From a virus (Duplodnaviria > Caudoviricetes), in IMG/VR virus record IMGVR_UViG_3300028591_000099, positions 1 to 64,000 of that record: a stretch of DNA of 64,000 nt. One strand, 5' to 3'. Positions within the stretch are counted from its first letter, which is position 1; each line of letters begins with the position of its first letter. The position numbers and the translations under genes were made by a program. Of the stretch, positions 5,297-21,781 are shown one piece after another. Below the pieces are notes generated by a model that was not told the origin of the DNA, searched no databases, and saw nothing but the letters and a program-made list of their open reading frames with translations.

Positions 5297-5310
5297 AATA
5301 AGCCACGATT

Positions 5311-5408: not shown

Positions 5409-5453
5409 TTAATTTTTGGAAATAACCCTGAAGATAAAGGGTAAATATATATT

Positions 5454-5497: not shown

Positions 5498-5973
5498 TGT
5501 GCTACTGGATTAATGAGGCTTGCGGGCCGGTCGGTTTTTATATATATACTCCCCCATTATATTATATAATATTTTATTAAAAATATCAAGTATTTGCGAA
5601 AAAAATTAGGTTTTTTTTAATATTATACCAAAATTTTATGAAAAAATCAAGAAAATATGCGGTTTTTAGCGAAAACCGGCCGGCTCCAGAGGTTTTATAT
5701 ATAAAAAAATGCCTTTTTTTAAAATTATACCAAATTTTTTAATAAAAATCAACAAAAATATGTGAAAAAGCTAATAAAATGCGGCATATGCGGCTAGAAC
5801 CGATCGGCGCGGGCCTCAGTTGGGAATAAAAATGAGGCATATGAAGATTTGCTGCCAGAGCCGGCCGGCCCGGGATTTTGGGAGAATTCCCCGGGAAATA
5901 TGGCCCGCAGTTGCCAGCAAAAAATTGCCATATGGGAGTGCCGGTCGGTAACACCGTCCGACCTCGGCGAAAA

Positions 5974-5988
5974 CGTTTTCAGAAAATT
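5974..5988. promoter_or_regulatory. CodY-box-like site
   Basis: CGTTTTCAGAAAATT, 13/15 match to AATTTTCWGAAAATT. Confidence 0.4.
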
Positions 5989-6010
5989 TTGAAAATTTTT
6001 TCAAAAAAAA

Positions 6011-6024
6011 TGTAAGCGGTTTCA
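6011..6024. promoter_or_regulatory. cre site (CcpA/LacI-family operator)
   Basis: TGTAAGCGGTTTCA fits TGWAANCGNTNWCA. Confidence 0.6.
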
Positions 6025-6042
6025 TTGTGAAAATTTTCACAA
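6025..6042. promoter_or_regulatory. Rex operator
   Basis: TTGTGAAAATTTTCACAA, perfect TTGTGAA-N4-TTCACAA. Confidence 0.7.
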
Positions 6043-6213
6043 GTGCGAGTTTTGGGAAATACCGAAAAAATGCGGGAAATAATCAATTTCTACTTGACAA
6101 ATTGGGTTAGAATGTGATATAATATTTCGGGCCTAGGCTGCCACCGACGGCCCGGCGGAAAATAGCCTGCTATCATCTCCTAAACTCCAAAAGAAAAGCA
6201 GGCTATTGATAGC

Positions 6214-6582
6214 CTACTTTCGATGAGCGGTTAGTGTCAGCGAGTAGTGAACCCCATCCGCATCAGTGAAGTCAACCACCCTTTCAGCATTGGAGATTTT
6301 AACTTCTTGTGTGAGGTCGCATTTCGCAAGGGCATCCGCTACAAAGGAGATAATACCTTGCTTTGTTGGGTTCTCTTTACGAGTGCGAGTGGTTGATTTT
6401 GGAGCCTTGCGAGTAGTCACGTTGCAAAGTTTACGCTGATTTTTTAATTGTTCTGGCGTTAAATCCCAAGGCTTTGGGAGACCCTTGTCAATGTCGAGGT
6501 CATCTTGAACCATTTTTTCAGCATCCGCACGTGAGATGTTAAATAACCGCATTTGTTTTAAGACTTCTTTTTCATCCAACAT
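6214..6582 (-). CDS. hypothetical protein, family B (paralogue of 9979..10356)
   Basis: shared QM....EA.E.V..DL.I..G and Y...LT.HR motifs; own promoter and RBS. Confidence 0.8.
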   Translation of the reverse strand: MLDEKEVLKQMRLFNISRADAEKMVQDDLDIDKGLPKPWDLTPEQLKNQRKLCNVTTRKAPKSTTRTRKENPTKQGIISFVADALAKCDLTQEVKISNAERVVDFTDADGVHYSLTLTAHRK

Positions 6583-6698
6583 TCCATAACACCCCTTTCT
6601 ACATTATTATTATAACAAAATAAAAAATAATTGTCAACGATGAGTTGCTCGCCCCCGGGGGGTTAGGGGAGGCTAACACCTCCCCTTAGGGGAAAGGG

Positions 6699-7049
6699 TC
6701 AAATCTTGGTGAACCAAGCGACCCCTTTCACCATCTCACGCGAAACGCGAATTTCCTTACGCAGTTTCGTGACAAGGGCAGTTACTTTCTGCGAATTGGC
6801 ATCAGCGAGTTCGTCAACTAAACCCTTAATGTCAGCGATACGATAGGCAACCCCATCTTCCATAGCGTTGTAAATCGCATCAGCGAGGTCAGCATTTGCA
6901 ACCTGTTTCTTGGAGGGCTTGAGCGAGCGAGAAGCGTTTTTCTTCTCTAACAGGTCGAGTTCATGGTCAATAAACTCAACGAGTTCAGGGTGGTCAGCAA
7001 CGAGGGAGCGGAGTTCGAGATAGCGGTCACGTTTAGTAATTTTTTCCAT
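6699..7049 (-). CDS. putative winged-helix DNA-binding protein, family A; ends at TGA
   Basis: KPSKKQVAN motif and SQKVTALV helix; three paralogues in the window. Confidence 0.8.
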   Translation of the reverse strand: MEKITKRDRYLELRSLVADHPELVEFIDHELDLLEKKNASRSLKPSKKQVANADLADAIYNAMEDGVAYRIADIKGLVDELADANSQKVTALVTKLRKEIRVSREMVKGVAWFTKI

Positions 7050-7366
7050 TAGGTTATCACCTTTCCTTTCTTACATACATAGTATAACATGGATTGAATT
7101 AGATGTCAAGGGGTTTCTCACAACTTTTTTTAGAAGTTTCGTGGTAGATTGGGATTTGAGCCTATCGGCTCCCCTCTCCCCTTGACGATTATAGTATAGC
7201 AAATAGGGTGTGCAAAAAACATGCCAAGCAAAAATTTGCGTCAAAAAAAAATTTTTTGTATAATAATAATGTAAGGAAAAGAAACCTTACAAAAATTCCA
7301 TTCCATTTAAACTTTTTTCTAGGAGGGGGTGCCCGGGGCGGCACCCTTTTCCTATTGAAAAAGCCT

Positions 7367-8038
7367 TCAATGTTTGAAGGCAATTTCACGAACGAGTTTT
7401 TTCTTGCGTTTATTGAGGTATCCCATAATTGCGGTTTCAATTTCGACGTCCTTTAAGCCAGTGTGAGATTCAGTAAAGTTGGGGTCTTTGAGAATGTAGC
7501 GATAGACTGTTTCAGCCTTGATTTGCGGACGCCCATTTTTTGTGAGGTAATTATTTTCCTCGCAGAATTTCACATAGTTGCGATTTTTGAGGAAGGTCTG
7601 CTTCGCCATTTTCATAATGTCGATGTATTGCGTATCTTTAGGGAAGAAATACCATTTTTTGTTAAGGAAGGAATTAGTCTTTTTTAATGCATAGTAATCG
7701 AATGAGGTATTGTAAGCCGCTACCTTTTTGATGTTGTATTTCTCCATCAAGTCAAGGATTTGCGTTCTCGCATCATCGAACGAAACGAGCGACCGCACAC
7801 CCTCGCCAATTTCTACAAAATACTGAGGGAGTTTGTCAGCGTAGTATGAAGTTTTCATACGCTTGTATTCGCCTTGGAAAATGTCCTCGACTACAAGATT
7901 TAATGTTTCATAGATATTGCCAAGTCTATCACAAACCGCAACCCCAATGTCATAGGTGAGTGCGTTACAACCATAGACCCCTTTAGAATGGTCGAAGGTT
8001 GCGGTTTCAGTGTCGATAGTCAGAATGTAATCTTTCAT
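7367..8038 (-). CDS. DEDDh 3'-5' exonuclease; ends at TGA
   Basis: IDTET, AYNTSFD, HTGLKD motifs. Confidence 0.85.
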   Translation of the reverse strand: MKDYILTIDTETATFDHSKGVYGCNALTYDIGVAVCDRLGNIYETLNLVVEDIFQGEYKRMKTSYYADKLPQYFVEIGEGVRSLVSFDDARTQILDLMEKYNIKKVAAYNTSFDYYALKKTNSFLNKKWYFFPKDTQYIDIMKMAKQTFLKNRNYVKFCEENNYLTKNGRPQIKAETVYRYILKDPNFTESHTGLKDVEIETAIMGYLNKRKKKLVREIAFKH

Positions 8039-8227
8039 AGTTATAACCTCTCTTTAACTTACAAGTATAGTATACCACTCTTGGAACAAGGTGTCAAGCG
8101 GTATTTTTAGGATTTTTGAAATAGCGTGCTAATGTGCAGAAATCGCCCCGGGAAATGTGGTAATAGCATCCTATTGAAAATTCCGCCCGCTGCGGCCAAA
8201 AGCGGGCGGCCCAAAAGAAAAGACACC

Positions 8228-8461
8228 TTAATAGGTGTCATAGCCGAGTATTTCAGCCTCGAATTCAGAATACTTATCTATGTATTTGGGGTTAGTGAAA
8301 TACATTTTAGCAATTTGTTTAGCCTCTTGGAGGGTTTCACGTTCTACGAAGAACTCTTCACCTGTTTCTTCATCATAGAATAGAAAGTCCCAATAGTGCT
8401 TCGTGGTTTCTGAATGGCACATGTTGCGTTCGTAGTTGTCTTGATAGAGTTTCTTTTCCAT
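8228..8461 (-). CDS. small acidic protein, family D
   Basis: DFLF...GEEFFVE..T..EA..IAK..F, C-terminal LGYDTY; paralogue of 8554..8748. Confidence 0.75.
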   Translation of the reverse strand: MEKKLYQDNYERNMCHSETTKHYWDFLFYDEETGEEFFVERETLQEAKQIAKMYFTNPKYIDKYSEFEAEILGYDTY

Positions 8462-8553
8462 AGGTCTTTACCTCTCCTTGCATTATTATAATAACAGAAA
8501 AGAAGTTAGTTGTCAAGAGATTTTTTCAAAAAATGTGCCCGGGCGATAGATAC

Positions 8554-8748
8554 CTAGAAGGTATCTAATCCGAGAAATTCGCCTTCTTCGGGGGTCATCT
8601 CTTCCAAGAGCCAAAGGCAACCCTCGCCATTTTCAGTTGGGAAATTTTTCTTCGCTATTTCCCAAGCCTCTCCGCGTGTTTCGCACTCAACGAGGAAATC
8701 GACCTCGCCATTATCGGATTCATAACTGAATAAGTAATCTTTTAACAT
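8554..8748 (-). CDS. small acidic protein, family D
   Basis: DYLF...GEVDFLVE..T..EA..IAK..F, C-terminal LGLDTF. Confidence 0.75.
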   Translation of the reverse strand: MLKDYLFSYESDNGEVDFLVECETRGEAWEIAKKNFPTENGEGCLWLLEEMTPEEGEFLGLDTF

Positions 8749-8791
8749 TTTAATCACCTCTCCTTACAGTATTAGTATAACAGAAAAGGGG

Positions 8792-8998
8792 CTAATCGTC
8801 AAGCCCCTCTTCAAAGAAATTGCCTTTTGTGTAATACGTTTCGATTTCTTCAATCTTTGTATCTGTGACATAATCCCATAAATCACAAGACAAAGTTTCT
8901 TCAACAGCATCTTCAAGGCTATCACCATAATACTGAGGGCAAACCTCAACTTCACATTCGAGAATGACTTTACATTTTACGACTTTTCTTTCTTCCAT
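8792..8998 (-). CDS. small acidic protein
   Basis: own promoter, AAGGAG RBS. Confidence 0.7.
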   Translation of the reverse strand: MEERKVVKCKVILECEVEVCPQYYGDSLEDAVEETLSCDLWDYVTDTKIEEIETYYTKGNFFEEGLDD

Positions 8999-9087
8999 TT
9001 TTTTTACTCCTTTTTTCTTACATTATTAGTATAACAAATAGGGGTAAGGTTGTCAATACCTAATCTAAAAAGTTTTTTCCCGGGGCG

Positions 9088-9103
9088 GTTAGGTGCACCT
9101 AAC
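9088..9103. promoter_or_regulatory. GTTAG-N6-CTAAC palindrome (DtxR/MntR-like); further copies at 6662, 9872, 9906, 10964, 11056
   Basis: recurring 16-bp inverted repeat with a variable centre. Confidence 0.5.
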
Positions 9104-9247
9104 AACCCAAGTCCGCAAACCAAAAAAGCCCCCTCACTAGGGCTCTTTTGGAAGAGAGGAAACAAGAAAAATGAATTTAGGAGGAAGAAACAAGGGCGAA
9201 AGGTGGAAACTTTAGCCCCTCTTTTTACCCCCTAAAGGGGGAGAAGG

Positions 9248-9583
9248 TTAGGCAACCTTGAACAGAGTTACCTTACCTTCCTTGACCTTGACAACAGAGC
9301 CATTGTCAACTAACTGTTTGAGCAGAGCCGAAGCCTTCTGATTGGAGGACAGACCGAGACCCTCTGCGATAGCAGTAGCAGTAGCACCTTCAGTGTTGCC
9401 GAGGAAGTCAACGATAGCACCCTTGATACCCTCGTTTTCAACCTGATTCTTGGTAGCCTTGCGAGTGCCGTTAGACTTGCGAACAGACTTTAACGCACGT
9501 TCCTTTAAGAAGGCGAAGTCATCAGCAGACAGATTAGCGAAGTCGATAGCGTTGATACGAGCAGTGATAGTCATTTTTTCCAT
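9248..9583 (-). CDS. putative winged-helix DNA-binding protein, family A
   Basis: KATKNQVEN, TATAIAEGLGLSSNQKASALLKQLVDNGSV wHTH pattern. Confidence 0.8.
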   Translation of the reverse strand: MEKMTITARINAIDFANLSADDFAFLKERALKSVRKSNGTRKATKNQVENEGIKGAIVDFLGNTEGATATAIAEGLGLSSNQKASALLKQLVDNGSVVKVKEGKVTLFKVA

Positions 9584-9934
9584 AGTTTTAACACCTCTTT
9601 CTTTTTACATTTTTATTTTAACATGGAATGTTTGGTTTGTCAAGTCTTTTTTTGATTTTTTTGAGAAGGTTGGTAGGGAACTTGACCGAGCCCCTCTTTA
9701 CCTTACATCTTAATGATAGCACCTTTTGGAAATCTTGTCAAGCATTTTTTTTAATTTTTTTGAAGATTTTTTTGAGGTGGTAGTTAGGATTTTTCCCTCC
9801 CTACATTATTTATTATACTGATTTTCGGGATAATGTCAATAGGTCTGCGTAAAAAAGTTTTAATTTTTTTTGTTAGTTAAGCCTAACAAAGTTCGCCCGG
9901 GCGGTGTTAGCAGCCGCTAACTTTCGGCCGCAAC

Positions 9935-9952
9935 TTGTGAAAGTTCTCACAT
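9935..9952. promoter_or_regulatory. Rex-like operator
   Basis: TTGTGAAAGTTCTCACAT, 2 mismatches. Confidence 0.5.
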
Positions 9953-9978
9953 TAGCAAGCAGTTTGTGAAAAAAGCCC

Positions 9979-10356
9979 CTAGGCTTTAGGGGCTCTGTGC
10001 TTGGTCAGTTTCACAGTGTAAGAATTTTCACCAACCTTGAAACTGATTTCTGCTTCATTCTTGACAGAGATTTCATACTCTGCAAGTGCGTTCTGCAATT
10101 TTTCAATGAGCATTTTCTTTTCCTCATCTACTTTACGCTCACGCTTTACATTACGTTTTTCAGCAGGTTTTCTATCGGCTTTTGTGAGATTGCGGACAAG
10201 TGCTTTCTGCTCTTTAGTTAAAGCACCAAGTTCCTTGTCGCCATTTTCAATAGCCAAGTCCCAATCTACGCTTTCCTTTGCTTCTTCATAGGTGCAACGT
10301 AAGACTTTCATTTGACGCTTGATTTCGGCTTCATACTGTGCTTGAGTGAGTTTCAT
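9979..10356 (-). CDS. hypothetical protein, family B
   Basis: paralogue of 6214..6582; GAGGTG RBS. Confidence 0.8.
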   Translation of the reverse strand: MKLTQAQYEAEIKRQMKVLRCTYEEAKESVDWDLAIENGDKELGALTKEQKALVRNLTKADRKPAEKRNVKRERKVDEEKKMLIEKLQNALAEYEISVKNEAEISFKVGENSYTVKLTKHRAPKA

Positions 10357-10430
10357 TTTCAACACCTCTCTTTCTTCTCTTATATTCTAGCAGATAGAGG
10401 GGGCTTTGTCAACCCCCTCTTTGAGGTTTT

Positions 10431-10778
10431 TTAGATTTTGGTGAACCAAGCAACACCCTTGACCATTTCTCTTGAAACTCTGATTTCTTTTCTGAGTTTG
10501 GTTACAAGAGCCGTTACTTTCTGAGAGTTTGCGTCTGCTAACTCATCCACAAGGCCTTTGATATCTGCGATTCTGTAAGCGACACCTTCTTCCATTGCGT
10601 CATAGATTTTATCTGTGAGTTCATGGTTGGCTACCTGCTTAGCAGTGGGCTTGTTAGAGCGTGAAGCGTTCTTCTTTTCAGTGAGAGCAATCTGCTTGTT
10701 GATGAATTCGATTTCTTCTTCATCTGTTAAGTGAGAGAGAATCTGCAGATACATGTCGATTTTAGTGCGTTTTTCCAT
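10431..10778 (-). CDS. putative winged-helix DNA-binding protein, family A
   Basis: last 51 aa identical to 6699..7049. Confidence 0.85.
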   Translation of the reverse strand: MEKRTKIDMYLQILSHLTDEEEIEFINKQIALTEKKNASRSNKPTAKQVANHELTDKIYDAMEEGVAYRIADIKGLVDELADANSQKVTALVTKLRKEIRVSREMVKGVAWFTKI

Positions 10779-11185
10779 AGTGATTACCACCTTACCTTTC
10801 TTACATTATTAGTATAAGCGATTTTAGAGATTTTGTCAAGCACTTTTTGAACTTTTTTTGAAGTTTTTTTTTGAGGGCTTGCGGTCTCTCCTCATCCCTT
10901 ACACTTATTATTATAATGATTTCTTAATAGAAGTCAATACCCAATTTTAAGGTTGGCGTAATTTTAGGACAACCTAATCAAAGTATAAAAAAATGCGATT
11001 TTGCTCTTGACAACTGGGGGTCGGATGTGGTATAATTTTCGGCCCGCCCTCGGTTGTTAGGGAGACCTAACAGAGCGTGCGCCCGGGGCTAAGCCGGTCG
11101 GTTTCAGCAAAAATCGCACACAATGAAAAATTATCTATTGACTTTTGGACTAAAGAGAGTATAATAATAATTGTAAGAGAGGTAA

Positions 11186-11899
11186 ATGAAAATGAACTTA
11201 ATGACTATTGATACAGAAACAACAAACTCACTTGATGACCCAATCGTCTATGATTTGGGTCTGGCAATTCATGATGAAAATGGTAATGTATTCCATACTG
11301 AAAGCCTTGTAATCGCAGAAACATTCCTCAATGAAGAATTGATGAGCGTGGCTCTGTTCGCAGATAAAATCCCAACCTATTGGAAAGACATTAAAGAGGG
11401 CAAAAGAAAGTTAGTTAAACTCTCTACTGCTAAAAGAATTGTTAAAAATCTGATTAAGCGGTATGGTATTAAAACAGTAATAGCACACAATGCGTTCTTT
11501 GATTACAAATCATTAAATACTACATTACGCTATTATTCAGGTTCAAAATACAGATACTTCTTGCCTTGGGGCGTAGAGATTTGGGATAGTCTGCGAATGG
11601 CAAAAACTGTTTTGCTGAAAGATGAAAAGTATGTGAATTGGACGATTGAAAATAACTACTTGACAGAAAAGCGGAAAAGTCCAAAGTTGACCGCAGAGGT
11701 CATCTATCGCTACATTACGAATGATGAAAGTTTCATTGAAGAGCACACAGGTTTGGCTGATGTGATGATTGAGAAAGAAATCACAAAGTATCTCTTGGCT
11801 CGCAGAGACCCCAACATGAAACGCATGCTATTTAATAAGTCCAAAAGTGAAGATACAGAGGACTTGATAGCATGGTATCTAAACTCACTCGCAGAGTGA
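11186..11899 (+). CDS. DEDDh 3'-5' exonuclease (paralogue of 7367..8038); ends at TGA
   Basis: IDTET, AHNAFFD, HTGLAD motifs; own promoter; TGA lies inside a terminator hairpin. Confidence 0.85.
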   Translation: MKMNLMTIDTETTNSLDDPIVYDLGLAIHDENGNVFHTESLVIAETFLNEELMSVALFADKIPTYWKDIKEGKRKLVKLSTAKRIVKNLIKRYGIKTVIAHNAFFDYKSLNTTLRYYSGSKYRYFLPWGVEIWDSLRMAKTVLLKDEKYVNWTIENNYLTEKRKSPKLTAEVIYRYITNDESFIEEHTGLADVMIEKEITKYLLARRDPNMKRMLFNKSKSEDTEDLIAWYLNSLAE

Positions 11900-12112
11900 G
11901 TTTTTTACACAAAAGGTGGCCCGGATTTTTGGGCAAACGCACAAAAGCAAAATAATTGCGAAAATTGCTTGACAAAATGCGGGGGATGTGCTATACGTAA
12001 AACTCGCACCGAGCGGCCCGGGCTCGGCGCGACGAAAAGTCAATAAAAAAGCCAATGGGCAAGAGAGGTAAGGGGACCCATTGACTAGGAATTGGTTATT
12101 TAGGGGTAGAAA

Positions 12113-12242
12113 GGGGGTGAGTGGGAGTCGAACCCTAATTCACTTATTCAACGTCTAGACATACGCAAGTAATCCGCGGTTCCTTGAATAGAGGTCTAGG
12201 TTGGAAGTCACTACAGCCACTTCGTGTTAGAAACTTCACCCC
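12113..12242 (-). ncRNA. tRNA/tmRNA-like structured RNA (about 130 nt)
   Basis: GGGGTGA/TCACCCC acceptor-like stem, GGG-TTCGACT-CCC T-arm, internal CAACCTAGAC/GTCTAGACGTTG stem. Confidence 0.55.
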
Positions 12243-12278
12243 ATTTTTTAGAGGGGGAGAGGGTCTCCCCCAAGAGGG

Positions 12279-12608
12279 CTAGGCAATTCGCCAAGTTGCC
12301 TTGACCTTGCCCTTACCTTCAGTCTTTACGAGACCCTCGCCATAGTGCGTGAGCAGAGCAGAGACTTTCTGATTGCTGAGGTCGAACGCTTCCTCAATGT
12401 CCTTGCAAGTGACAACACCCTTTTCAGCGATGAAGTCCTTAATCTTTGCCATCAGTTCAGCATTGGCAACCTGAACCTTTGTGGGCGTGGTTCTCTTATA
12501 GGACTTCTTATGTCCTAACAGTTCGATTTCATGGTTGCAGAAGTCAACGATTTCAGCGTCATTGGAGCAAACAGTAGCGATGCGAGCGAACATTTCTTTC
12601 TTTGTCAT
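12279..12608 (-). CDS. putative winged-helix DNA-binding protein, family A
   Basis: PTKVQVAN, SNQKVSALL motifs. Confidence 0.8.
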   Translation of the reverse strand: MTKKEMFARIATVCSNDAEIVDFCNHEIELLGHKKSYKRTTPTKVQVANAELMAKIKDFIAEKGVVTCKDIEEAFDLSNQKVSALLTHYGEGLVKTEGKGKVKATWRIA

Positions 12609-13014
12609 AGATTTAACACCTCTTTCTTTCTTTACATTTTTAGTATACCATGACTTGGTGGGTTTGTCAACCCTTTTTTGAGAGATTTTCACATTTACTT
12701 CTTCTTTGAAGTTTCAGCGTAGGCAACCTCTCTCGCCTTACATCTTCATTATAGCACTTTTTGATTTTTTGTCAAGCACTTTTTGAAGATTTTTTGTAGA
12801 TTTTTGATGAGCCTCTATGCAACACTTTTCAGTTTGCAGGTCTGTCGCCTCTCGGCTATCTCCGACTCGCTCTTGAGGCTCATCTCTCTCCCTACACTTA
12901 TTATTATACTCATTTAAGAAGTAATGTCAAGGGTTCTTTTTTAATTTTCTTTAAGTTTTTTTATTCACAAGCGGCCGCCCGGGGCAATTTACCCGGGGCA
13001 GAAAAAAGACTGCC

Positions 13015-13257
13015 TTAGCAGTCCCAATCATACCCTCCCATGTAAGGATTGTAGCCTACTTCAGACCCCCAATAATCATCATCAAACTCGAGGTCTTCAT
13101 CAGGCTGTTCCGAAGGAAGCAGTTCCCAATCCATTCGAGAATTTTTGCGAAGGTAGCCACCATAGGCTTCAAACTCATCGTGGGCAATTTCCCAAAAGAG
13201 TTCGACATTGTTTAGAGTGAAGATTTCGCCTGTAATGTTGTTTGTGAATGTATACAT
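13015..13257 (-). CDS. small acidic protein
   Basis: own promoter and RBS; C-terminal GYNPYMGGYDWDC. Confidence 0.75.
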   Translation of the reverse strand: MYTFTNNITGEIFTLNNVELFWEIAHDEFEAYGGYLRKNSRMDWELLPSEQPDEDLEFDDDYWGSEVGYNPYMGGYDWDC

Positions 13258-13343
13258 TTTACTTACCTCTCTTTACATTGTTAGTATAACATAGTAGGGG
13301 TGTCTTGTCAATAGTGATTTGAAAAAAATAAGCCATTTTTGGC

Positions 13344-13583
13344 TTATTTTCTATTTTTGTAAGAGGGGATTTCAATTAACCAATTATCTAATTTTTTGCT
13401 AATGTGAATAATGGCCTCATCTGTGTAAGTAGTTACATCTTTACAATTATAGATTTCATCTTGAGACATTGTTTCAAACTTCTCTTCGGGAACTAACAAA
13501 CAAGGGCACAAAAGCACAATTTCGCCTTTTTCAACATCAAAATCGACACCATTTGCTTCAAGAACTTTAATTAACTCATCCAT
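13344..13583 (-). CDS. hypothetical protein
   Basis: GAGGT RBS before ATG 13583; own promoter. Confidence 0.7.
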   Translation of the reverse strand: MDELIKVLEANGVDFDVEKGEIVLLCPCLLVPEEKFETMSQDEIYNCKDVTTYTDEAIIHISKKLDNWLIEIPSYKNRK

Positions 13584-13730
13584 TTTTTTAATACCTCTTT
13601 TCTTCATTATTATTATAAAATACTTTTTCAAAAAAGTCAATAGAAAATTGAAAAGTGTTTGCGGCCGGCCGGTCAACCGCCCGGGAGGGTCTAGGTAAAA
13701 CCGGTCTCAAAATCGCCCGGGCGCAAGCAC

Positions 13731-14144
13731 TCAACCCCACAAAGCAATAGGGTCAAGTGCAAGTCCATTCCAATTTTCTCTTATCTTTTGGTTGTCATCT
13801 ACGAGGATAGCATTTTTTGAGTTTTTCAAGTTTTTATTATTCCCATACTTTCTGTAAATTCGTTTTGAAATTGAAGGGAAATAAGCATCAAGCCAAGCGT
13901 TTTTCATTTTAATTACTCGCTTGCAGTATTCCGCACTCGCATTTTTCGGTGTCATTGATAGAACGATAATTTCATAGTGGTCTTTTGGAAAAACCGATTT
14001 CAATACTTCTTCAGTAGTCAGTCTTTCATCTCCACCGAACACTGTTTCATCTTCACTCTCCAGTCTTGCGAGCCAGTTTTTCTTACCATACAAGTTGAAG
14101 ATAGTTCCGTCCATGTCAAGATAAACTCTAGTCTTTTTCATCAT
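13731..14144 (-). CDS. HAD-family 5'(3')-deoxyribonucleotidase-like protein; ends at TGA
   Basis: YLDMDGT and ILVDD motifs. Confidence 0.8.
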   Translation of the reverse strand: MMKKTRVYLDMDGTIFNLYGKKNWLARLESEDETVFGGDERLTTEEVLKSVFPKDHYEIIVLSMTPKNASAEYCKRVIKMKNAWLDAYFPSISKRIYRKYGNNKNLKNSKNAILVDDNQKIRENWNGLALDPIALWG

Positions 14145-14278
14145 TCTTACCTCTCTTTACAATACTATTATATCACATCGGGGGACGGTGTCAATACCTA
14201 AATTAAAAAGTTGTATCAAAAGTTGCCCCGGGCGTATCCATTAGAGAATAAAAGCAAAAAAGAAGAAGCAGAGAGGTT

Positions 14279-14755
14279 TTACTTCTTCTTTTGGTAATGC
14301 CGTATGGAACAATTAAATCTTTGATTCCATTTTCTCATTTTGGAAGGAAACGCTTTATAATAAGCAATCGCCCATTCAGTAGCCATACTTTCACGTATTG
14401 TATCAAAATACGCAATTTGTAATTCATCTTCAGTATACTTCCTATCACGTTTTGCCAAGAGTTCGCTTACAATGTCTCGCTCTTGCTCTTCTTTTGGAAG
14501 ATATTCAAGTGTATAATGATGACCTAATTCATGCAGTATTGACATTGTGAATAGGTTGGTTTTATTAACGATAAAGTTATATTTATTTTTAAGGTATTGC
14601 TCCCAAATCGCATCTTCTTTTGGTTGCGGTGCTAGGGTATATCCGATAATACCTTCATCGTAGTAGTAGAACCCATCGAGCTCATATTGAACCTCGCAGT
14701 CTCCCTCTATGAATTTCGATATTAGTTTTGAAAGTTGGTTATATCGTCTTGCCAT
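14279..14755 (-). CDS. HExxH zinc metallopeptidase-like protein
   Basis: ILHELGHH plus downstream E..A..WA. Confidence 0.7.
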   Translation of the reverse strand: MARRYNQLSKLISKFIEGDCEVQYELDGFYYYDEGIIGYTLAPQPKEDAIWEQYLKNKYNFIVNKTNLFTMSILHELGHHYTLEYLPKEEQERDIVSELLAKRDRKYTEDELQIAYFDTIRESMATEWAIAYYKAFPSKMRKWNQRFNCSIRHYQKKK

Positions 14756-14835
14756 ATCTTACCTCACATTCTTATTATACCTCGCTTAAGGGAGGAAGTC
14801 AAGGGGCACTTTTGGAGAAGTGCCCCAGGGAGGGC

Positions 14836-15294
14836 TCAAGCGGCACGGAGAGTGAGCCTTGCATTGCGGAGAGTTCTCTCAGTTGTGATTGTCGCACCCT
14901 CGAACTTGACTTGGACTTCCTTGCCGTTGATATTGACATCACCTTGGACATAGAAGGGGATATTGTCGGCTTCCCAGTGCTGACCTGCGACCTGCTCGGT
15001 GACATATCTTTCGAAAGCGTGACCCTTGTTTTTAGCGAGGGCGTAGATTTCTGTATCTGTGCCGATATAGGTAGCACCCTTGCGGATTAACTGCTCTTTA
15101 TAGAGATTGTTGAGGCGGAGGCGGAGGGTTAATGCCCCACCGTGGGAGGTTGACTCTTTTTCAACGGTCATATAGCGTGGCATAATGTGCGGGAGTTCGA
15201 CCATATAGATACCGTGCTTGTAGACAAAGCCCATAATAGTGCTATCGGAAGCGTCCATGGTGCGGTAGTTTTTAATCATCGTGTTCTTGTTCAT
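14836..15294 (-). CDS. hypothetical protein, family F, possible PD-(D/E)XK fold; ends at TGA
   Basis: G..FE...GDV.....QVK; paralogue of 21021..21458. Confidence 0.7.
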   Translation of the reverse strand: MNKNTMIKNYRTMDASDSTIMGFVYKHGIYMVELPHIMPRYMTVEKESTSHGGALTLRLRLNNLYKEQLIRKGATYIGTDTEIYALAKNKGHAFERYVTEQVAGQHWEADNIPFYVQGDVNINGKEVQVKFEGATITTERTLRNARLTLRAA

Positions 15295-15682
15295 CTTGTA
15301 TACCTCTCTAACTGTCTTTATTATAAAGGATACACCGGAAAATGTCAAGCGTTTTCAAAAATTTTTTTATGAAAGTGTTTACATTTTTTTTGAAACAATT
15401 TTCATAATTTTTTGAAAAAATTTTCTGAAAAAATGTTTTTGGGATTTTCAAAAAATGTAAAAAATTTTCACAAAAAAAGTGCTTGACATGCGGCCGGCGA
15501 TGTGCTATAATTTTCGGGCCCTAAACGGCCTCGTAATAGCGTGCTATAGGTCCTCTAGGTCCACAGTTCCGGGCGTGCCGCGACCGTATGACACGCCCGG
15601 CTCTGTGTGTAAAAAATGTCCACGGGTCCGGGTGTGCCAAGTTCGGCTCGCCGCAACCCTTGGCGAGCCGACAAAAAAAACC

Positions 15683-15844
15683 TTACCGCATCCAGTAAGG
15701 TCTATAGTCGGTGATATCTTCAAATTCATTCCGCTCTTCTGCGGAGAATGTCCGTCTGAACCAACGTTCGCAAGCATCGTAGCTATCAGCGGAGTATTCA
15801 ACGATTTCACCAGTGTTTTTGTTTAACCAAGTCATTGTTGTCAT
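15683..15844 (-). CDS. small protein (53 aa, MTTMTWLNKNTGE...)
   Basis: promoter and AGAGAGGT RBS; not in ORF track. Confidence 0.7.
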   Translation of the reverse strand: MTTMTWLNKNTGEIVEYSADSYDACERWFRRTFSAEERNEFEDITDYRPYWMR

Positions 15845-16080
15845 TTTTTAATACCTCTCTTTACACTCTTATTATAACATAGTCCGGGCTAATGTCAATA
15901 GGTTTTCAAGATTTTTTTCGATTTTTTTTCTACCAGATAATCGAGAACTTGCGGAGTCCGCTTATTTTTTAGCTGAGTTGTTACCTTGCGGTACTCAGTG
16001 GGAGTGCGGTTTTCATTCCCTCCCCCTTACATCTTTATTATAGCACATTCGCTATTTTTGTCAATACTTTTTTTTTATTT

Positions 16081-16245
16081 TTAGTAGTCAAGTTTTTTAT
16101 ACTTGGCTTTGCGTGGGATTTCTTTTTTCTTGTCTTTGTGAAGTCCACAGCCAGTCATTCTCCAGCTTTCCGCAATCCACAAGTTGCGGACGTGCGATTT
16201 TTCGGGATGGTTGTAAACTCTAACGCCGTTTTTATCTTTCTTCAT
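16081..16245 (-). CDS. small basic protein (54 aa, ...HKDKKKEIPRKAKYKKLDY)
   Basis: promoter and AGAGAGGT RBS; not in ORF track. Confidence 0.7.
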   Translation of the reverse strand: MKKDKNGVRVYNHPEKSHVRNLWIAESWRMTGCGLHKDKKKEIPRKAKYKKLDY

Positions 16246-16320
16246 TTTTTAATACCTCTCTCTATCTGCTTTTATTCTACTCTATTTAAGTTTAGTTGTC
16301 AAGCATTTGGAGAGATTTTT

Positions 16321-16443
16321 TTAATCTCTCCAATTAGTGACAGTGAGTAATTTTCCGAACTCTTTTTCGTGAAAGCGAATTTCAGAGCGGGATAATTTGC
16401 GAGCGAGCACCTCGCCACGTTCGAATCTATAGAGTTTCATCAT
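16321..16443 (-). CDS. small protein (40 aa)
   Basis: GGAGGT RBS before ATG 16443. Confidence 0.65.
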   Translation of the reverse strand: MMKLYRFERGEVLARKLSRSEIRFHEKEFGKLLTVTNWRD

Positions 16444-16516
16444 AGGTTTTATACCTCCCTTAACTGTCTTAATTATAGCAGATGACAAGACAAAACGCAA
16501 TACCCCGGAAGTCACT

Positions 16517-16554
16517 TTGTGTGTTCGCACAATACAGTTTGTGCGTTTGTCCAA
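16517..16554. promoter_or_regulatory. tandem TTGTG-N6-CACAA sites with 22-bp period; also at 17451, 18372, 18763
   Basis: four pairs, each 14-16 bp upstream of a minus-strand -35. Confidence 0.65.
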
Positions 16555-16564
16555 TACGGGATTT

Positions 16565-16628
16565 TTGTGATTTTATTCACAATTGCGACTTGTGAAAAAA
16601 TAATTTGTGAATGTGATAATTTTCACAA
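16565..16628. promoter_or_regulatory. cluster of Rex-like operators
   Basis: TTGTGATTTTATTCACAA (16565-16582), ATGTGATAATTTTCACAA (16611-16628). Confidence 0.6.
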
Positions 16629-16653
16629 GCGAAAATCGTCAACGGAGAAGATT

Positions 16654-16776
16654 TTAACCTTCTCCATAGACTAGCCATCTGCCATCTTCTAACTGTTTCA
16701 TTCTGCGGCCGCATCCACGGTTTAAGCATTTTCTCGCTTTAGTGTAATCTGTGAAGTATCTTTTGAACATTTTCAT
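16654..16776 (-). CDS. small basic protein (40 aa)
   Basis: GAGGAGG RBS; not in ORF track. Confidence 0.6.
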   Translation of the reverse strand: MKMFKRYFTDYTKARKCLNRGCGRRMKQLEDGRWLVYGEG

Positions 16777-16843
16777 TATCTGTTCCTCCTCATCTATAGT
16801 ATAACGCATTGACCGGAAAAACACAAGAGTTTTTTATCGCTTT

Positions 16844-17137
16844 TCAGCAATAAATTAAACTCATGTCCGACCATTTCAAAATTGAAATCTGCTTGCAGTT
16901 TCTGCCGATTCTTAACGCTTCTTTTTTTGTGCGTTCTCTGTGGCTCTTGTCGATGTAGTAGACGCCGTCCGCAAACCACACGCCGCAATTTCCATTGTAA
17001 GCCTTTACTAACTCTTCTGCCTTTTGGAGCGATTTAGTTTCATAGCCTTCTGTGGCGACTTGGTAACCTGTTTTATAGTTTACTGATTTGAAGTTTTTAA
17101 GCGTTAAGCCTTCGTTGTTTTTTAAGTTTTCTAACAT
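16844..17137 (-). CDS. hypothetical protein; ends at TGA
   Basis: own promoter and RBS. Confidence 0.75.
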   Translation of the reverse strand: MLENLKNNEGLTLKNFKSVNYKTGYQVATEGYETKSLQKAEELVKAYNGNCGVWFADGVYYIDKSHRERTKKEALRIGRNCKQISILKWSDMSLIYC

Positions 17138-17210
17138 TTTCCTTACCCTCTTTATACTATTATAATAGCATGCCCGGGCGGTTTTGTCAATACCCTAAAA
17201 CAAAAAAGTT

Positions 17211-17378
17211 TTAGAATTTTTCTAAAACTTTAATGTTTGCGATTTCTAATGCACCAACCGCAATCAGCAGAGGGAAGGCGGAAAGTTCAAAATCGTGAAG
17301 AGATAACAAGCAGATACCAAGAGCAAAGGTGATAATTTCTAATGCTTTTCTAATGGAAGGGCGGAGTTTACGTTTCAT
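17211..17378 (-). CDS. small membrane protein (55 aa)
   Basis: AGAGAGGT RBS; basic N-terminus and two hydrophobic stretches. Confidence 0.65.
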   Translation of the reverse strand: MKRKLRPSIRKALEIITFALGICLLSLHDFELSAFPLLIAVGALEIANIKVLEKF

Positions 17379-17626
17379 AATTTTTTAATACCTCTCTTTA
17401 CATTATTATAATAACATTATTTATTATTTTTGTCAATAGTTTTCCCCGGTTTGTATGGTCGCACAATACATTTTAGGCAATCGCACAAATTGTAAAAAAT
17501 AGCAAAAAATCTCTTGACAAATGTGCGGCCGGTGGTGTATAATTTTTCGAACCGCCTTCGGAGTTTGTGAATATTTTAATTTTCACAAGCATGCCCGGCC
17601 GCAATAAAAAAAAAGAGCCTTTCGGC

Positions 17627-17932
17627 TCAAGCGAGGTTGTATCCTAACTTTTGGTGATTTCTCGCAAGTTCTAACACCTTTTCCAATCCTTTTAAGTTTC
17701 TTCCAAAGTATCTCTTAATTTGATTTGGTCTTGCGATTAATTTTGTTATCATCTTGTGGGTTCTTTCGTTTCTAATGATGATGATACCTGTATCGGTTAC
17801 TGTATGAAGTTCCGCACCATTCGGATGATTTCTATCGATTGTGAATGTAGCGATCTCGTTTCCCATTCCGATTTTTTTGATTAAGTCTTCTCTGTTGGCT
17901 CTGTCTTCTCTGTAGTGCTTACTCGTTGTCAT
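17627..17932 (-). CDS. hypothetical protein; ends at TGA
   Basis: TGA abuts the GAGCC-GAAA-GGCTC-T8 terminator. Confidence 0.75.
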   Translation of the reverse strand: MTTSKHYREDRANREDLIKKIGMGNEIATFTIDRNHPNGAELHTVTDTGIIIIRNERTHKMITKLIARPNQIKRYFGRNLKGLEKVLELARNHQKLGYNLA

Positions 17933-18095
17933 TTTCTTTACCTCTCTCTTTACACCTTTATTATAACAGATTGAGATTTAATGTCAATAGTTTTAGGAGA
18001 TTTTTTTACTAAAAATTTTTTTTGTAATTTTCCTCTTGACATCTTGGTCGATAGTATGCTATAATTTTTCGAACCGCCTACGGCATTAAAAAAGC

Positions 18096-18299
18096 CTACT
18101 CAGTAGGCAACAAATGTTTGACGGATTCATCAGCGAACAGAATATTTTTAAGACCAACCTCTTTCAAAAATTCTGCAAACTCTTCAAGGTCTTCTTCATT
18201 CTCAAATTCATCTTCAAAGAAATCAGAGACGAACGGAACAAGGACAACCTCTCCATCAATAACAACTTCATCAGGCAAATTAAGTTTGAACAGCAACAT
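18096..18299 (-). CDS. small acidic protein
   Basis: GAGAGGTG RBS, own promoter. Confidence 0.7.
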   Translation of the reverse strand: MLLFKLNLPDEVVIDGEVVLVPFVSDFFEDEFENEEDLEEFAEFLKEVGLKNILFADESVKHLLPTE

Positions 18300-18535
18300 T
18301 TTTTAACACCTCTCTCTTTCTGTCTTTATTATAGCAGATACAACACCGGAACGCAAGGGGTAAAATACATTTTGTGCGAACGCACAGCGAGTTTTGGGTG
18401 ATTACACAAATCGTAATTTTTTGCAAAAAATCTCTTGACAATAGCAGGCTATTACGTGTATAATTTTCGGCCGCAATCGGCGTCCTTTTTGACTTGTGAA
18501 TGTGATAATTTTCACAATCTCTCTCGTAAAAAAAC

Positions 18536-18691
18536 TCAAGCCGTAGCCAGAGTTTTTTTGATTTCAGCGATTTCTCTATCGAGGTGGTTATCTTCTTCCC
18601 AATCGGAATTGAACCAGAAGTCTTTCATCGCAAGCATGAATTTTTCGTTTTCGAGTGTTTCAAGTTTTTTAAGCATTTCAGTTCTTGTCAT
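18536..18691 (-). CDS. small protein (51 aa); ends at TGA
   Basis: AGAGAGGT RBS; TGA lies within a terminator-like hairpin; not in ORF track. Confidence 0.7.
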   Translation of the reverse strand: MTRTEMLKKLETLENEKFMLAMKDFWFNSDWEEDNHLDREIAEIKKTLATA

Positions 18692-18813
18692 TTTGTGTTA
18701 CCTCTCTCTTCACTATTATAATAACACACCCGGTTTTAGAAAGCAATACCTAAATGAGTGATTTGTGCGAACGCACAAAGTAGTTTGTGTAATCGCACAA
18801 TGATAGTCTGCTA

Positions 18814-18863
18814 TTAGCACTCCTGCTAGGCGAGTGCTAGCAGTCGGACACTGTGAGTGCTAA
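18814..18863. promoter_or_regulatory. two overlapping CIRCE elements (HrcA operator)
   Basis: TTAGCACTC-N9-GAGTGCTAG (18814-18840) and CTAGCAGTC-N9-GAGTGCTAA (18837-18863). Confidence 0.8.
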
Positions 18864-20357
18864 CAGCAATTCAGGAAAAACAGAAAGTTGACCTATTTTG
18901 TCGAATTTGGCTGCCCAGATTGCGATGGCTACAGTATAGGTAAAAACGTGCCGCCACACCCGGCGCCGGCACGCCAAATCATTTCAAAAATAAAAATAAA
19001 ATAAAACGAAATCATTTTGAAACTGGAAACAAAATCAAAAATCAATGAAAAAAAGACATTTAAATCAAAAAGGCGGTATTCTTATTTTTATTATTTAAGT
19101 TAAAGAAAAATGAACCTTAAAACTCACATTTAATAATAGAAATCTCATTAAAATTATTGATTCCAGAAGATACAGAAAGATAGTTTTAGAAAAAACCTTA
19201 AATAAAAGATGAAAATAGAGCGAATTAAAAAAAATACCTCCTAATTTCGGGAGGGTTCTTGCCCAAACGAAATGCCGCTTGAAAAATGAAATGAGTATTA
19301 CCTTTTTGATTTTATTCCAAGAGGGCATTCGTAAAGACGAGATGTAAAAGAGGGAACAAAGATAACCGGATGAGGGTAAATTGATTTGAAATAACCGGGG
19401 AGGAGATGCGGCAAGGCGTTAAACCGGTCGGAAACACCTGCGGCCGCAAACTCTCATTTCACTACTGGAATAGTATTATTATTCACTCTACAGGCACTCT
19501 TAGTTAAAAGCATTAAAAATTTTATTTTTCAAAGTATTTTTTTAATACGACTTGTATTTTTTATCACACTATCATTTTCAAATAGTATTTATTTCATTCT
19601 ATTTCTAATAGTGAAATTGAAAAAATAGAGCAAAGAAGAGGTTTTTGAAAATAAAGTAAAAAATAGAATAAAATAATTTGTATCTTAAAGGAACGAATGT
19701 AGTTCTCTTTTGGAAAAACCGGGGTCTCTCCTGGTCGGTATCTGGCCTTAGAAAACAGCGAAATAAAATGTAGTTTTAATTTTAGAATTATTAAGAATAT
19801 CCTTAACTAAAAAAGGAAATAAAAAAGAAATCTATTTTATTATTTTGAATTAGAAAAAGTTTTGTATGAAATAAGTAATTAACACCAAAACAAAAAATAC
19901 TATAATTTAAATTATACGGGGTAGGTAGGTGAGGCTATGTTGAACTTTGTGGCTTTGCTAATTAAAACCAAAAGTCCAGATGGAACTGAATAGAAGATGA
20001 AATAGAAAAATAGCACATGAATGGTCTAGATTTTTAACTTAGAAAATCATAGTATGTTTTGAATAGTTGCCTGGATAATACGCTGTTCGGCATCTGTTGA
20101 TTGCGGCAACGCTAGGAATAGTCGTGCCTCTAGGCGTGCCTATGAAAGTTGCTAGAAGTATAGAGGCATGCGTGAGGTCGCCCGCAGGTTAATTGCCTTT
20201 TGGATTGCTGGGTTTGGTGAGTGCGGCTTTTGGGGGTTTTTGGGATGTGGTATTGCCGAGTTGCTGGTGCGAAGTTGCCATAAATTGTTTGCTTATGGGT
20301 GCCCTCTGGGAAGGAGGGCCGAGGACGAAGGCCATATAAGAAAGAGCCTTTCGGCTC

Positions 20358-20768
20358 TTAGATCTCGATTGAGGCTCCTTTTGTTTCAAGGAAGATTGCC
20401 TTATGACCTGCTTTTATCCAAGGTTTGATGTTCTTCATATCATCATCAATCAGTGTGCCTGTCTTTGTCTTCATGTAGTCTACCTTCTTGCCGTTGCCTA
20501 CGATGATGATGATGTGTCGGCGATTGATTTCTGGAAGATACTTTGCTAACCAAGTCAGTTTCCCATTTTTAGCGTCGTTATTGGCTGCTTTAGATAAGAT
20601 GTATACGTTCTGCTTGTTAGCGATCAGTGCCTTTATGGTTGCGATGTTCTCAGTGAATGGCTCAAGGTTGGCAATCCATGTTTCGCTAAGAGCATTTGCT
20701 CTGTTGTATGGTTCTTTATGGAAGTTAGCGATAACGCCGTCCATGTCTACATAGTATGTTTTACGCAT
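20358..20768 (-). CDS. HAD-family 5'(3')-deoxyribonucleotidase-like protein (paralogue of 13731..14144)
   Basis: YVDMDGV and LIDD motifs. Confidence 0.8.
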   Translation of the reverse strand: MRKTYYVDMDGVIANFHKEPYNRANALSETWIANLEPFTENIATIKALIANKQNVYILSKAANNDAKNGKLTWLAKYLPEINRRHIIIIVGNGKKVDYMKTKTGTLIDDDMKNIKPWIKAGHKAIFLETKGASIEI

Positions 20769-20811
20769 TGTGTGTTCCTCTCTCTCTTTACCTTATAGGT
20801 TGCCTACGTCA

Positions 20812-20982
20812 TCAATGTAAGACGATGACGTAGGACTTTGTTGTGTTGTCGTAGTGCATGTAAGAGTTTTTGGACTGTTCGCTATAGACATTCCAATACA
20901 TCCAGCACAGATAGCGATAACTTTTAGCAGTCTTTGTGATTGTTGTGTTGTTTCTTTCATCGATAACTCTATATTCTAACAT
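20812..20982 (-). CDS. small protein (56 aa); ends in TGA TGA
   Basis: GAGAGG RBS; tandem TGA; not in ORF track. Confidence 0.6.
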   Translation of the reverse strand: MLEYRVIDERNNTTITKTAKSYRYLCWMYWNVYSEQSKNSYMHYDNTTKSYVIVLH

Positions 20983-21020
20983 TTTTTTATCCTCTCTTTC
21001 CTTTTCTCTATGTTTTGCCT

Positions 21021-21458
21021 TTACTTTGAGGCTTTAAGCAGACTTGCTAGTGAACAGATTGTCGCATTCTCTCTCTTTACTTCAATGCGTTGACCGTTTG
21101 CGACAATGTCGCAGCCCTTATACCATGGCGTTGTGTTTCTCTTCCACTCTTTGCCCGTCAATCTTTCCAGTAAGTAACGCTCTATTTGTTCGCCTTTGTT
21201 ATACTGGCATTTTGTAAAGATTTCTTCAGTTTTGCCGATACATTCAGCCCTTAATGCAAGTTTACGCTTTTGATTGACTGTTAACGACATACGGATTTTT
21301 TGGTATCCCTTACTGTCTTTTTCCATTAAGCACCATGACGGCTTAATTGCGTTCAATGTAGCAATGTATTCATAACCATTTAATGTAAATGATAACATAA
21401 CGATATCATGGCAACTTTTTGTGTTATATACTTTTAAGTATTTGTTAACGCTTTTCAT
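21021..21458 (-). CDS. hypothetical protein, family F, possible PD-(D/E)XK fold
   Basis: GEQIE...CDI.....EVK; paralogue of 14836..15294. Confidence 0.7.
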   Translation of the reverse strand: MKSVNKYLKVYNTKSCHDIVMLSFTLNGYEYIATLNAIKPSWCLMEKDSKGYQKIRMSLTVNQKRKLALRAECIGKTEEIFTKCQYNKGEQIERYLLERLTGKEWKRNTTPWYKGCDIVANGQRIEVKRENATICSLASLLKASK

Positions 21459-21618
21459 GTTTCTATATTTCCTTTCCTTATCTGAGCCCATTGTAGCAAA
21501 TAGAAAAAAATACGTCAAGAAAAACTTTTATTTTTTTTTCGTGTTTTGTTAGTTGGCACTTTTTTCGCACAAGGCGGGGTGGCGGGGGCCTACATTACAC
21601 GGCCCACCAACGAAAGCA

Positions 21619-21675
21619 TGAAAACGCTTACATACGGGGGTGTAAAAAAGGATAAAAAAAATGTAAACGCTTACA
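21619..21675. promoter_or_regulatory. two cre sites (CcpA)
   Basis: TGAAAACGCTTACA (21619-21632), TGTAAACGCTTACA (21662-21675). Confidence 0.7.
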
Positions 21676-21781
21676 TCCGAAAAGCCCTCCCCACCCCTCC
21701 CGCTAAAACCTTTTTCTAATCGATCCCCTCGATCTCTTACCCCCCCTACCTATTTACGGGAAACCACCGAAAAAGGGGACC

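Follow-up and report, generated by a model that had tools for sequence, protein, structure and literature searches.

Host-type and lineage-specific palindromes among the early genes of a large ruminant-gut phage, a probable means of reading or soaking up host regulators

The window analyzed here is the first 64 kb of the 160,981-bp IMG/VR record IMGVR_UViG_3300028591_000099, the genome of a ruminant-gut phage (labeled G0 or G000 below), and encodes virion proteins, a tape measure, and a portal. In its early region, between 5.9 and 21.7 kb, GC skew is absent, and ∼28 small genes are carried on the minus strand, almost each of them with its own near-consensus TTGACA-N16-18-TATAAT promoter; 88 promoter-like sites were found, against 39 expected. 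Seven orphan promoters are directed along the plus strand (Table 1). The early region is also rich in palindromes, some of which match the sites of host regulators of the Rex, HrcA, and CcpA types, while others are peculiar to this phage lineage. Judging from the sequence, the phage probably uses them to read or soak up host regulators.

Sites were tallied across the 161-kb genome, with dinucleotide shuffles of the early region serving as the background. The TGTGA-N6-TCACA palindrome is present in five copies (shuffle mean, 0.013), GTTAG-N6-CTAAC also in five (0.003), and the strict catabolite-responsive element (cre), defined as the 14-bp TGWAANCGNTNWCA with its central CG, in three (0.06); every copy lies in the early region, and the other 145 kb contain none. 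When all k-N-k palindromes were counted without bias, the TGTGA-N6-TCACA, GTTAG, and cre families ranked at the top, and two more emerged, TTGTG-N6-CACAA and TTGTGAA-N10-TTCACAA, each present three times in the region and nowhere outside. Operators were scored against consensus strings, that of Rex being a published one. In a look-elsewhere control with 18 Firmicutes operator consensi, only Rex/TGTGA-N6-TCACA, cre, and the controlling inverted repeat of chaperone expression (CIRCE), scored as TTAGCACTC-N9-GAGTGCTAA, were enriched. An earlier interpretation of this DNA, made from its letters alone and referred to here as the sequence-only reading, had listed a series of operator matches in this region. 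All of them are present at their listed positions, and in the comparison with shuffled controls that it had proposed, run here with consensus strings, the Rex-type, cre, and CIRCE matches exceed the background.

A metagenome scan yielded two close relatives, L173 (96 to 98% identical, covering window positions 8468-21769) and L174 (92 to 96%, 4479-16472). In these two contigs taken together, the arms of the host-type palindromes (Rex-type, cre, and CIRCE) carry substitutions at 0 of 182 positions (p = 6e-4) and those of the lineage-type palindromes (GTTAG and N10) at 0 of 116, giving 0 of 298 for all arms pooled (p = 5e-6). The background is ∼4%, with 7 substitutions in 184 positions of the motif spacers and 373 in 9252 positions of other intergenic DNA, and the rare changes within sites hit N positions. 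The Rex-box, CIRCE, and cre classes are under purifying selection. Conservation in related phages, another check suggested in the sequence-only reading, is seen both in these unsubstituted arms and in the recurrence of the site classes.

Table 1. Palindromes, orphan promoters, and the winged-helix gene in the early region of the window
Feature	Position	Strand	Remarks
Cre-like CGAAAACGTTTTCA, 1 mismatch	5968..5981		43 bp before next cre; only L174 change is at an N position
Perfect cre TGTAAGCGGTTTCA	6011..6024		Abuts Rex box; unchanged in L174
Perfect Rex-type box TTGTGAA-AATT-TTCACAA	6025..6042		Center ∼-96.5 of orphan promoter 6094
Orphan promoter TTGACA-N18-TATAAT	6094..6123	+	Promoter scan
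Seven orphan promoters TTGACA-N18-TATAAT-TTTCG	6094, 11007, 11969, 15483, 17514, 18036, 18435	+	Promoter scan
GTTAG-N6-CTAAC beside CCCGGG	6662..6677		Arms intact in L174, spacer changed
GTTAG-N6-CTAAC beside CCCGGG	9088..9103		Pattern match
Early winged-helix protein	9248..9583	-	Weak HTH_20/MarR_2 matches; paralogue at 12279-12608
Full composite: GTTAG box, 7 nt, GCCCGGGCG, 2 nt, GTTAG box	9872..9921		Boxes at 9872 and 9906; 34-bp period
Rex-like box, 2 mismatches to 18-mer	9935..9952		Center ∼-138.5 of minus-strand promoter 9839; unchanged in L173 and L174
TTAG-N6-CTAA	10964		Pattern match
GTTAG-N6-CTAAC in leader past promoter 11007	11056..11071		Pattern match
Decayed cre-like site, 1 mismatch	15370..15383		Within 15369-15425, an inverted diverged copy of the 5969-6025 block
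A/T-rich block with CodY-like matches (2 to 3 mismatches)	15397..15477		Upstream of orphan promoter 15483
Paired TTGTG-N6-CACAA-type boxes	16517..16554; also 17451-17488, 18372-18410, 18763-18800		First pair upstream of weak -35 promoter
Rex-like box, 1 mismatch	16565..16582		Consensus match
TTGTGAA-N10-TTCACAA (24 bp)	16605..16628		Holds Rex-like site 16611; palindrome census
TTGTGAA-N10-TTCACAA	17565..17588		Center ∼+26.5 of orphan promoter 17514
TTGTGAA-N10-TTCACAA	18494..18517		Holds Rex-like site 18500; center ∼+34.5 of orphan promoter 18435
Two CIRCE-like palindromes overlapping by 4 nt	18814..18863		18814, 1 mismatch; 18837, 2 mismatches; head of minus-strand array
Two perfect cre, 43 bp apart	21619..21675		Starts 21619 and 21662; far array border; unchanged in L173

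The published Gram-positive Rex consensus is TTGTGAAW4TTCACAA (PMC2883068), and in Thermoanaerobacterium saccharolyticum, an anaerobe of the clostridial class, TTGTTAA-type sequences are among the predicted, putative Rex sites (PMC5886521). All five Rex-type sites in the window (6025, 9935, 16565, 16611, and 18500) are exact TGTGA-N6-TCACA matches, those at 16611 and 18500 having two mismatches each to TTGTGAA-N4-TTCACAA. The same 16-mer as in the 6025 box is found at the corresponding border of the relative G001 (described below), and 32 of the 35 perfect Rex-type boxes across four phages have an all-A/T center. The site at 18500 is the only one of the five located downstream of a promoter (+37.5); the positions in the relatives range from +27 to +95 and from -64 to -156. 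Domain searches found no Rex, HrcA, or LacI domains encoded in G000, G001, or G002. Matches to the Rex N-terminal domain (PF06971) and to HTH_Crp_2 were below the cut-off and apparently all represent one conserved small winged helix-turn-helix (wHTH) protein, 115 aa long in G0, which itself has the HTH_Crp_2 match only.

With up to one mismatch allowed, only 11 cre sites are found in the 161-kb genome; the first 23 kb, which are for the most part early region, contain 7. Two close pairs, each separated by exactly 43 bp (5968/6011 and 21619/21662), mark both borders of the array, a spacing that suggests that binding may be cooperative. Cre sites are placed over or just past a promoter when they repress and just before it when they activate, but these pairs lie farther off: relative to the minus-strand promoter 21518, the right pair is centered at ∼-142 and ∼-185, and the left pair is centered at ∼-113 and ∼-156. 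At 12998-13029, G001 has a counterpart of the cre+Rex composite (6011-6042 in the window), in which the central CG is lost; the exact 32-mer had no match in the IMG/VR scan. The best CodY-like matches, at 5974 (overlapping the cre-like site 5968..5981) and 15419, have two mismatches to AATTTTCWGAAAATT, and none has one mismatch or fewer. With two mismatches allowed, there are 2 sites versus 0.2 to 0.4 expected, and the looser matches all fall within two A/T-rich blocks. The CodY label of the sequence-only reading, which relies on such two-mismatch matches in A/T tracts, is not supported.

The CIRCE-like pair lies at ∼-122 and ∼-145 of the -10 element of the first cassette, and its arms are intact in L173, the single change being in the N9 spacer. 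Neither the promoter listing nor the sequence contains a strong promoter beside the pair, and no chaperone gene was found nearby. The pair is syntenic with the array head of G001, and the syntenic CIRCE is perfect in both G001 and L131. In G001, this head has a TTGACA-N17-TAGAAT promoter with a first CIRCE 7 bp past its end; four Rex boxes and GTTAG boxes come next, and then a second CIRCE and a further Rex box. Perfect CIRCE sequences were detected in more than 113 IMG/VR contigs, at least a dozen of which share early genes with this phage; these include L131, L056, L091 (three perfect copies ∼49 bp apart and one degenerate copy), and L113 (two copies in tandem). At L091 5380-5550, the CIRCE copies are interleaved with GTTAGA-N4-TCTAAC boxes, and in L113, like L091 a large rumen phage contig, positions 7037-7190 contain the tandem CIRCE together with three TGAAACGTTTCA palindromes. 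In a scan of 19 CIRCE-bearing loci, an upstream promoter was found in G001 (strong, at 7 bp) and L075 (weaker, at 28 bp). With G001 alone having a strong one, a promoter directly before CIRCE was rejected as a general rule.

G001 (176 kb, with a portal 78% identical to that of G0) and G002 (178 kb) were identified through the portal protein. The early region of G001 has 15 TGTGA-N6-TCACA sites, 12 of which are perfect TTGTGAA-N4-TTCACAA boxes, as well as 20 GTTAG boxes and 2 perfect CIRCE, all confined to that region. Another relative, L056 (IMGVR_UViG_3300033463_001124), combines within 12.5 kb ∼30 Rex-type boxes (18 of them perfect, in the TTGTGAA flavor and in the TTGTTAA flavor of the T. 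saccharolyticum predictions, with six in tandem), 9 perfect LexA Cheo boxes, and 1 CIRCE; its boxes are centered at +27, +60, and +93 of a promoter. This is the densest operator array found, with CCGG-containing linkers and a period of 33 to 35 bp. The Cheo box CGAAC-N4-GTTCG is absent from G0, G001, and G002. In IMG/VR, just 7 stretches had two perfect Rex boxes 10 to 40 bp apart, and 6 of the 7 either share proteins with the phage or are identified relatives. Because relatives bear far denser versions of it, the multi-regulator panel, as predicted from these matches, is a trait of the lineage.

The remaining palindromes do not correspond to host operators. The GTTAG-N6-CTAAC boxes had been taken for DtxR/MntR-like sites, and this label was rejected: their spacing is wrong, the ∼19-bp consensus of that family (e.g., TTAGGTTAGCCTAACCTAA) is unmatched even with one mismatch, and in relatives at least 20 copies belong to a fixed phage composite. 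In L006 and L007, which have 20 to 21 GTTAG-N6-CTAAC boxes each, the boxes are always found in such a composite, which follows a terminator and precedes the next promoter. In it, CCGGCG lies 7 nt after one box and 5 nt before the other, and there are ∼34 such composites with the same layout and period as in the window. GTTAG-N6-CTAAC is a lineage-specific site and no DtxR/MntR operator. CCCGGG stands beside the remaining GTTAG boxes of the window because the composite has such a core. All 18 CCCGGG sites of the genome fall between window positions 4566 and 22282, 16 of the 18 within the early array, and many adjoin GTTAG boxes.

The TTGTGAA-N10-TTCACAA palindrome, the spacing of which does not fit a Rex dimer, is a phage-specific element. 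It is found 27 to 35 bp past the orphan-promoter start in G0, G001, and L131 and likewise follows an orphan promoter in G002; the 18494 module is kept in G001 (8274) and G002 (137104). The TTGTG-N6-CACAA pairs are phage specific as well, with none in G001, and their arms are less strict, with substitutions in L173 at 2 of 80 positions. Each plus-strand orphan promoter leads into TTTCG and then a G+C-rich hairpin, and the majority are aimed at the 3' ends of minus-strand genes. An orphan promoter with a hairpin or GTTAG box and an N10 element forms a module that is kept in G001 and G002.

The most likely binders of these lineage-specific palindromes are small winged-helix proteins, several of which are encoded by the phage. 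The AlphaFold model of the early winged-helix protein (predicted local distance difference test score [pLDDT], 86) gave generic MarR/ArsR-type fold matches. Sequence and fold searches with this protein and with the 115-aa wHTH protein showed only a generic MarR/ArsR/TrmB likeness, and none of the matches pointed to Rex, HrcA, or LexA. Stacked strong promoters, two or three of them ∼100 bp apart, precede each of the winged-helix paralogues. Paralogous early genes are found at 6699-7049 and 10431-10790 and at 9248-9583 and 12279-12608.

The operator panel proposed in the sequence-only reading is supported for the Rex box, CIRCE, and cre, all of which match host operators, but not for the DtxR/MntR and CodY labels. 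The host-type identity of these three classes appears to be the best-supported assignment, because three to four long and independent consensus matches co-occur and are under selection in a phage that has no cognate regulator. The favored reading, to which a probability of about 0.38 can be given, is that host regulators bound at the host-type sites gate the early promoters, with phage proteins acting at the lineage sites; it is preferred both to a decoy function and to binding of all palindromes by phage-encoded proteins. The spacers between the ∼28 self-promoted cassettes would then hold a vocabulary of two kinds of putative protein-binding palindromes. Those of the host type, namely TTGTGAA-W4-TTCACAA, CIRCE, and the paired LacI/CcpA-type cre, could be expected to recruit the repressors of the host, as the phage itself lacks genes for Rex, HrcA, and LacI. 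Those of the lineage-specific type, i.e., the GTTAG-N6-CTAAC/CCCGGG composite, the N10 element after orphan promoters, and the TTGTG-N6-CACAA pairs before weak -35 promoters, would most likely be bound by the small winged-helix proteins of the phage. Through the host-type sites, the redox, proteostasis, and carbon state of the host would modulate early transcription, chiefly from the promoter that heads the array and from the antisense orphan promoters; titration of repressors after DNA replication would be a side effect. Geometry of the gating type is seen in relatives, with CIRCE 7 bp after the -10 element in G001 and boxes at ∼+27 to +95 in L056.

Several observations weigh against gating by host regulators. 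The CIRCE copies of the window are imperfect, and the adjoining promoter present in G001 has been lost there. The cre sites are not conserved in G001, which has no strict cre, or in G002, which has a single one, outside the array. The N4 Rex boxes, CIRCE, and cre of the window overlap no strong promoter core, their centers lying at -96 to -185. TGTGA-N6-TCACA equally fits regulators of the Crp/Fnr type, and the near-confinement of tandem Rex arrays to this lineage could fit a lineage-specific protein rather than general exploitation of hosts. Finally, the Rex-type boxes of L056 share their box-CCGG-box scaffold (33 to 35 bp) with the phage-specific GTTAG boxes, which hints at a diverging, phage-encoded binder.

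An alternative that is less likely than gating, although the most probable among the rivals, is that the region acts as a decoy or sponge: replicating early DNA, with hundreds to thousands of sites, would drain HrcA, Rex, CcpA-type regulators, and, in the relatives, LexA, so that host-type sites without a local target would de-repress the chaperone, fermentation, and SOS regulons with no phage protein involved. The matched regulators are all global repressors with regulons useful to the phage, and the copy excess fits this explanation, as in the ∼30 Rex-type boxes per 12.5 kb of L056, the CIRCE array of L091, and the 15 TGTGA-N6-TCACA sites of G001, as does the wide variation in copy number, from 1 to 5 in the window to 12 to 15 in G001. 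Titration of transcription factors is established for synthetic decoy arrays (PMC7826281); literature searches on phage decoy arrays gave no natural phage example. The majority of window sites are off promoter cores, which the sequence-only reading had counted in favor of decoys. Within each cassette, however, the stretch from terminator to UP element is the only DNA left free, and it is there that these sites lie, so that their placement, being forced by the compact terminator-spacer-UP-promoter layout, does not discriminate between the explanations, and some copies in relatives occupy classical operator positions. Few of the host-type sites in the window are perfect, and Rex would presumably be mostly off DNA already in an actively fermenting anaerobe. 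Ranking just below the decoy in probability is the explanation that small winged-helix early proteins with diverged specificity bind all the palindromes, their host likeness being due to coincidence or mimicry. The phage encodes several such proteins, one scaffold with a 33- to 35-bp period is common to the GTTAG boxes of L006, L007, and the window and to the L056 boxes of the Rex type, the TTGTGAA element with the best conservation has an N10 spacing unfit for Rex, and tandem Rex-type arrays in IMG/VR are nearly confined to this phage group. Nevertheless, the chance of three to four exact long matches (18-base CIRCE, 14-base Rex W4, Cheo, and cre) is very low, and the winged-helix fold does not particularly resemble Rex, HrcA, or LexA. 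CIRCE and Cheo boxes have no known binders besides HrcA and LexA.

A role of the palindromes as nucleic-acid structures, either hairpins for processing, stability, or termination or recombination scaffolds for cassette shuffling, is improbable. It would account for the conserved arms with free spacers, for the same TTGTGAA stem with a 4- or 10-nt loop, and for the location of the sites at cassette junctions, where relatives gain or lose whole cassettes, but it leaves the exact identity with host operators unexplained. No compensatory changes were seen, the TTGTTAA-AAAA-TTAACAA stem is estimated to be too weak for a useful hairpin, and Rfam gave no match; the asymmetry of G-U versus A-C in degenerate GTTAG boxes, used as a test for RNA pairing, yielded no information. 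Chance matches from scanning A/T-rich DNA against many consensi fit the CodY-like boxes, which have 2 to 3 mismatches and are found in A/T tracts only. Chance is refuted where the Rex-type, cre, CIRCE, and GTTAG matches are concerned, with 3 to 5 sites against 0.003 to 0.06 expected, none elsewhere in the genome, and unsubstituted arms, and as an explanation for the panel it is hardly credible.

Several other features of the window and its relatives were noted. ARAGORN and Rfam scans of the 64-kb window for tRNAs and RNA families, respectively, gave no match; a tRNA-like T-arm, GGGTTCGACTCCC, with pairing ends is present on the minus strand at 12100-12240, where it was called by neither program. 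Megablast of the early region against deposited phages also found no match. A geneless stretch of ∼1.4 kb (18900-20350) consists of a low-complexity A/T-rich part followed by a G+C-rich part and is a possible origin or end of the genome. It opens with a hairpin (loop CCACACCCG) that is common to G001 and L131 and has a compensatory stem change, and the matching place in G001 is occupied by a low-complexity repeat tract. Whole cassettes distinguish close relatives from the window (13328-13635, 16264-16306, and 12670-12973): L173 lacks one gene with its promoter, L173 and L174 have ∼545 bp in place of ∼40 bp, and L174 has ∼690 bp in place of ∼300 bp, which looks like cassette turnover at conserved junctions. 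Outside the window, G000 117846-123522 (locus L172 847-6523) carries two genes of the xanthine/uracil permease family (451 and 430 aa), which adjoin a gene for an AAA_24 ATPase and, at ∼120.4 kb, that for the 115-aa TrmB/MarR-type winged-helix protein; phages do not usually carry nucleobase permeases. Identification of the host through the portal protein in species genomes led to mis-binned contigs in metagenome-assembled genomes named Bacillota (2), Clostridia, and Treponema, which were too ambiguous to be used.

Operators of the heat-shock, redox, and carbon types make up the panel and are joined in relatives by SOS operators. If these sites bind host proteins, uncultured gut phages would have a way to read or rewire the physiology of the host that needs no dedicated genes. 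Operator flavors, such as TTGTGAA versus TTGTTAA Rex boxes and the Cheo boxes, could become a clue to the host that requires nothing but sequence. The analysis also separates host-type sites from similar-looking phage-specific palindromes.

The use of one host regulator, such as Spo0A or LexA, by a phage is known, whereas a conserved panel of multiple repressor operators in a large virulent-type lineage was not found described, and literature searches on CIRCE in phages returned no relevant paper. In bacteria, the CIRCE/HrcA operators, 9-N9-9 inverted repeats, control groESL and dnaK. The phage repeats resemble them with 1 to 2 mismatches in the window and perfectly in G001, L131, L056, L091, and L113, and the G001 copy further resembles chaperone operators in its location directly after a sigma-A-type promoter. 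In contrast to the bacterial operators, the phage copies are tandem or overlapping and are followed by no chaperone gene, and those of the window have no adjacent promoter. Host LexA boxes are used by GIL01 and other phages of a temperate or plasmid-like nature, in which the LexA site overlaps a lytic promoter. Here too, host repressor operators would lie within the phage control region, and the relative L056 has nine Cheo boxes, although the window itself has none. The Rex operators of Gram-positive bacteria (PMC2883068) are the identical 18-bp repeat, of which there are 1 perfect copy in the window, 12 in G001, and 18, in both flavors, in L056; the bacterial operators precede fermentation genes, whereas those of the phages are mostly off promoters, and the N10 variant is the most conserved. 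In synthetic decoy arrays, repeated operators without targets titrate a regulator (PMC7826281), but those arrays were engineered. The virulent Bacillus phages phi29 and Nf carry boxes for the host Spo0A, by which a host regulator gates a virulent phage according to the state of the host (PMC2731898). In those phages, there is a single regulator with proven binding, whereas the phage described here has several predicted operators in many copies, mostly off promoter cores and known from sequence. The likeness lies in the presence of sites for host global regulators, predicted in the present case, in the early control region of a virulent Firmicutes-type phage.

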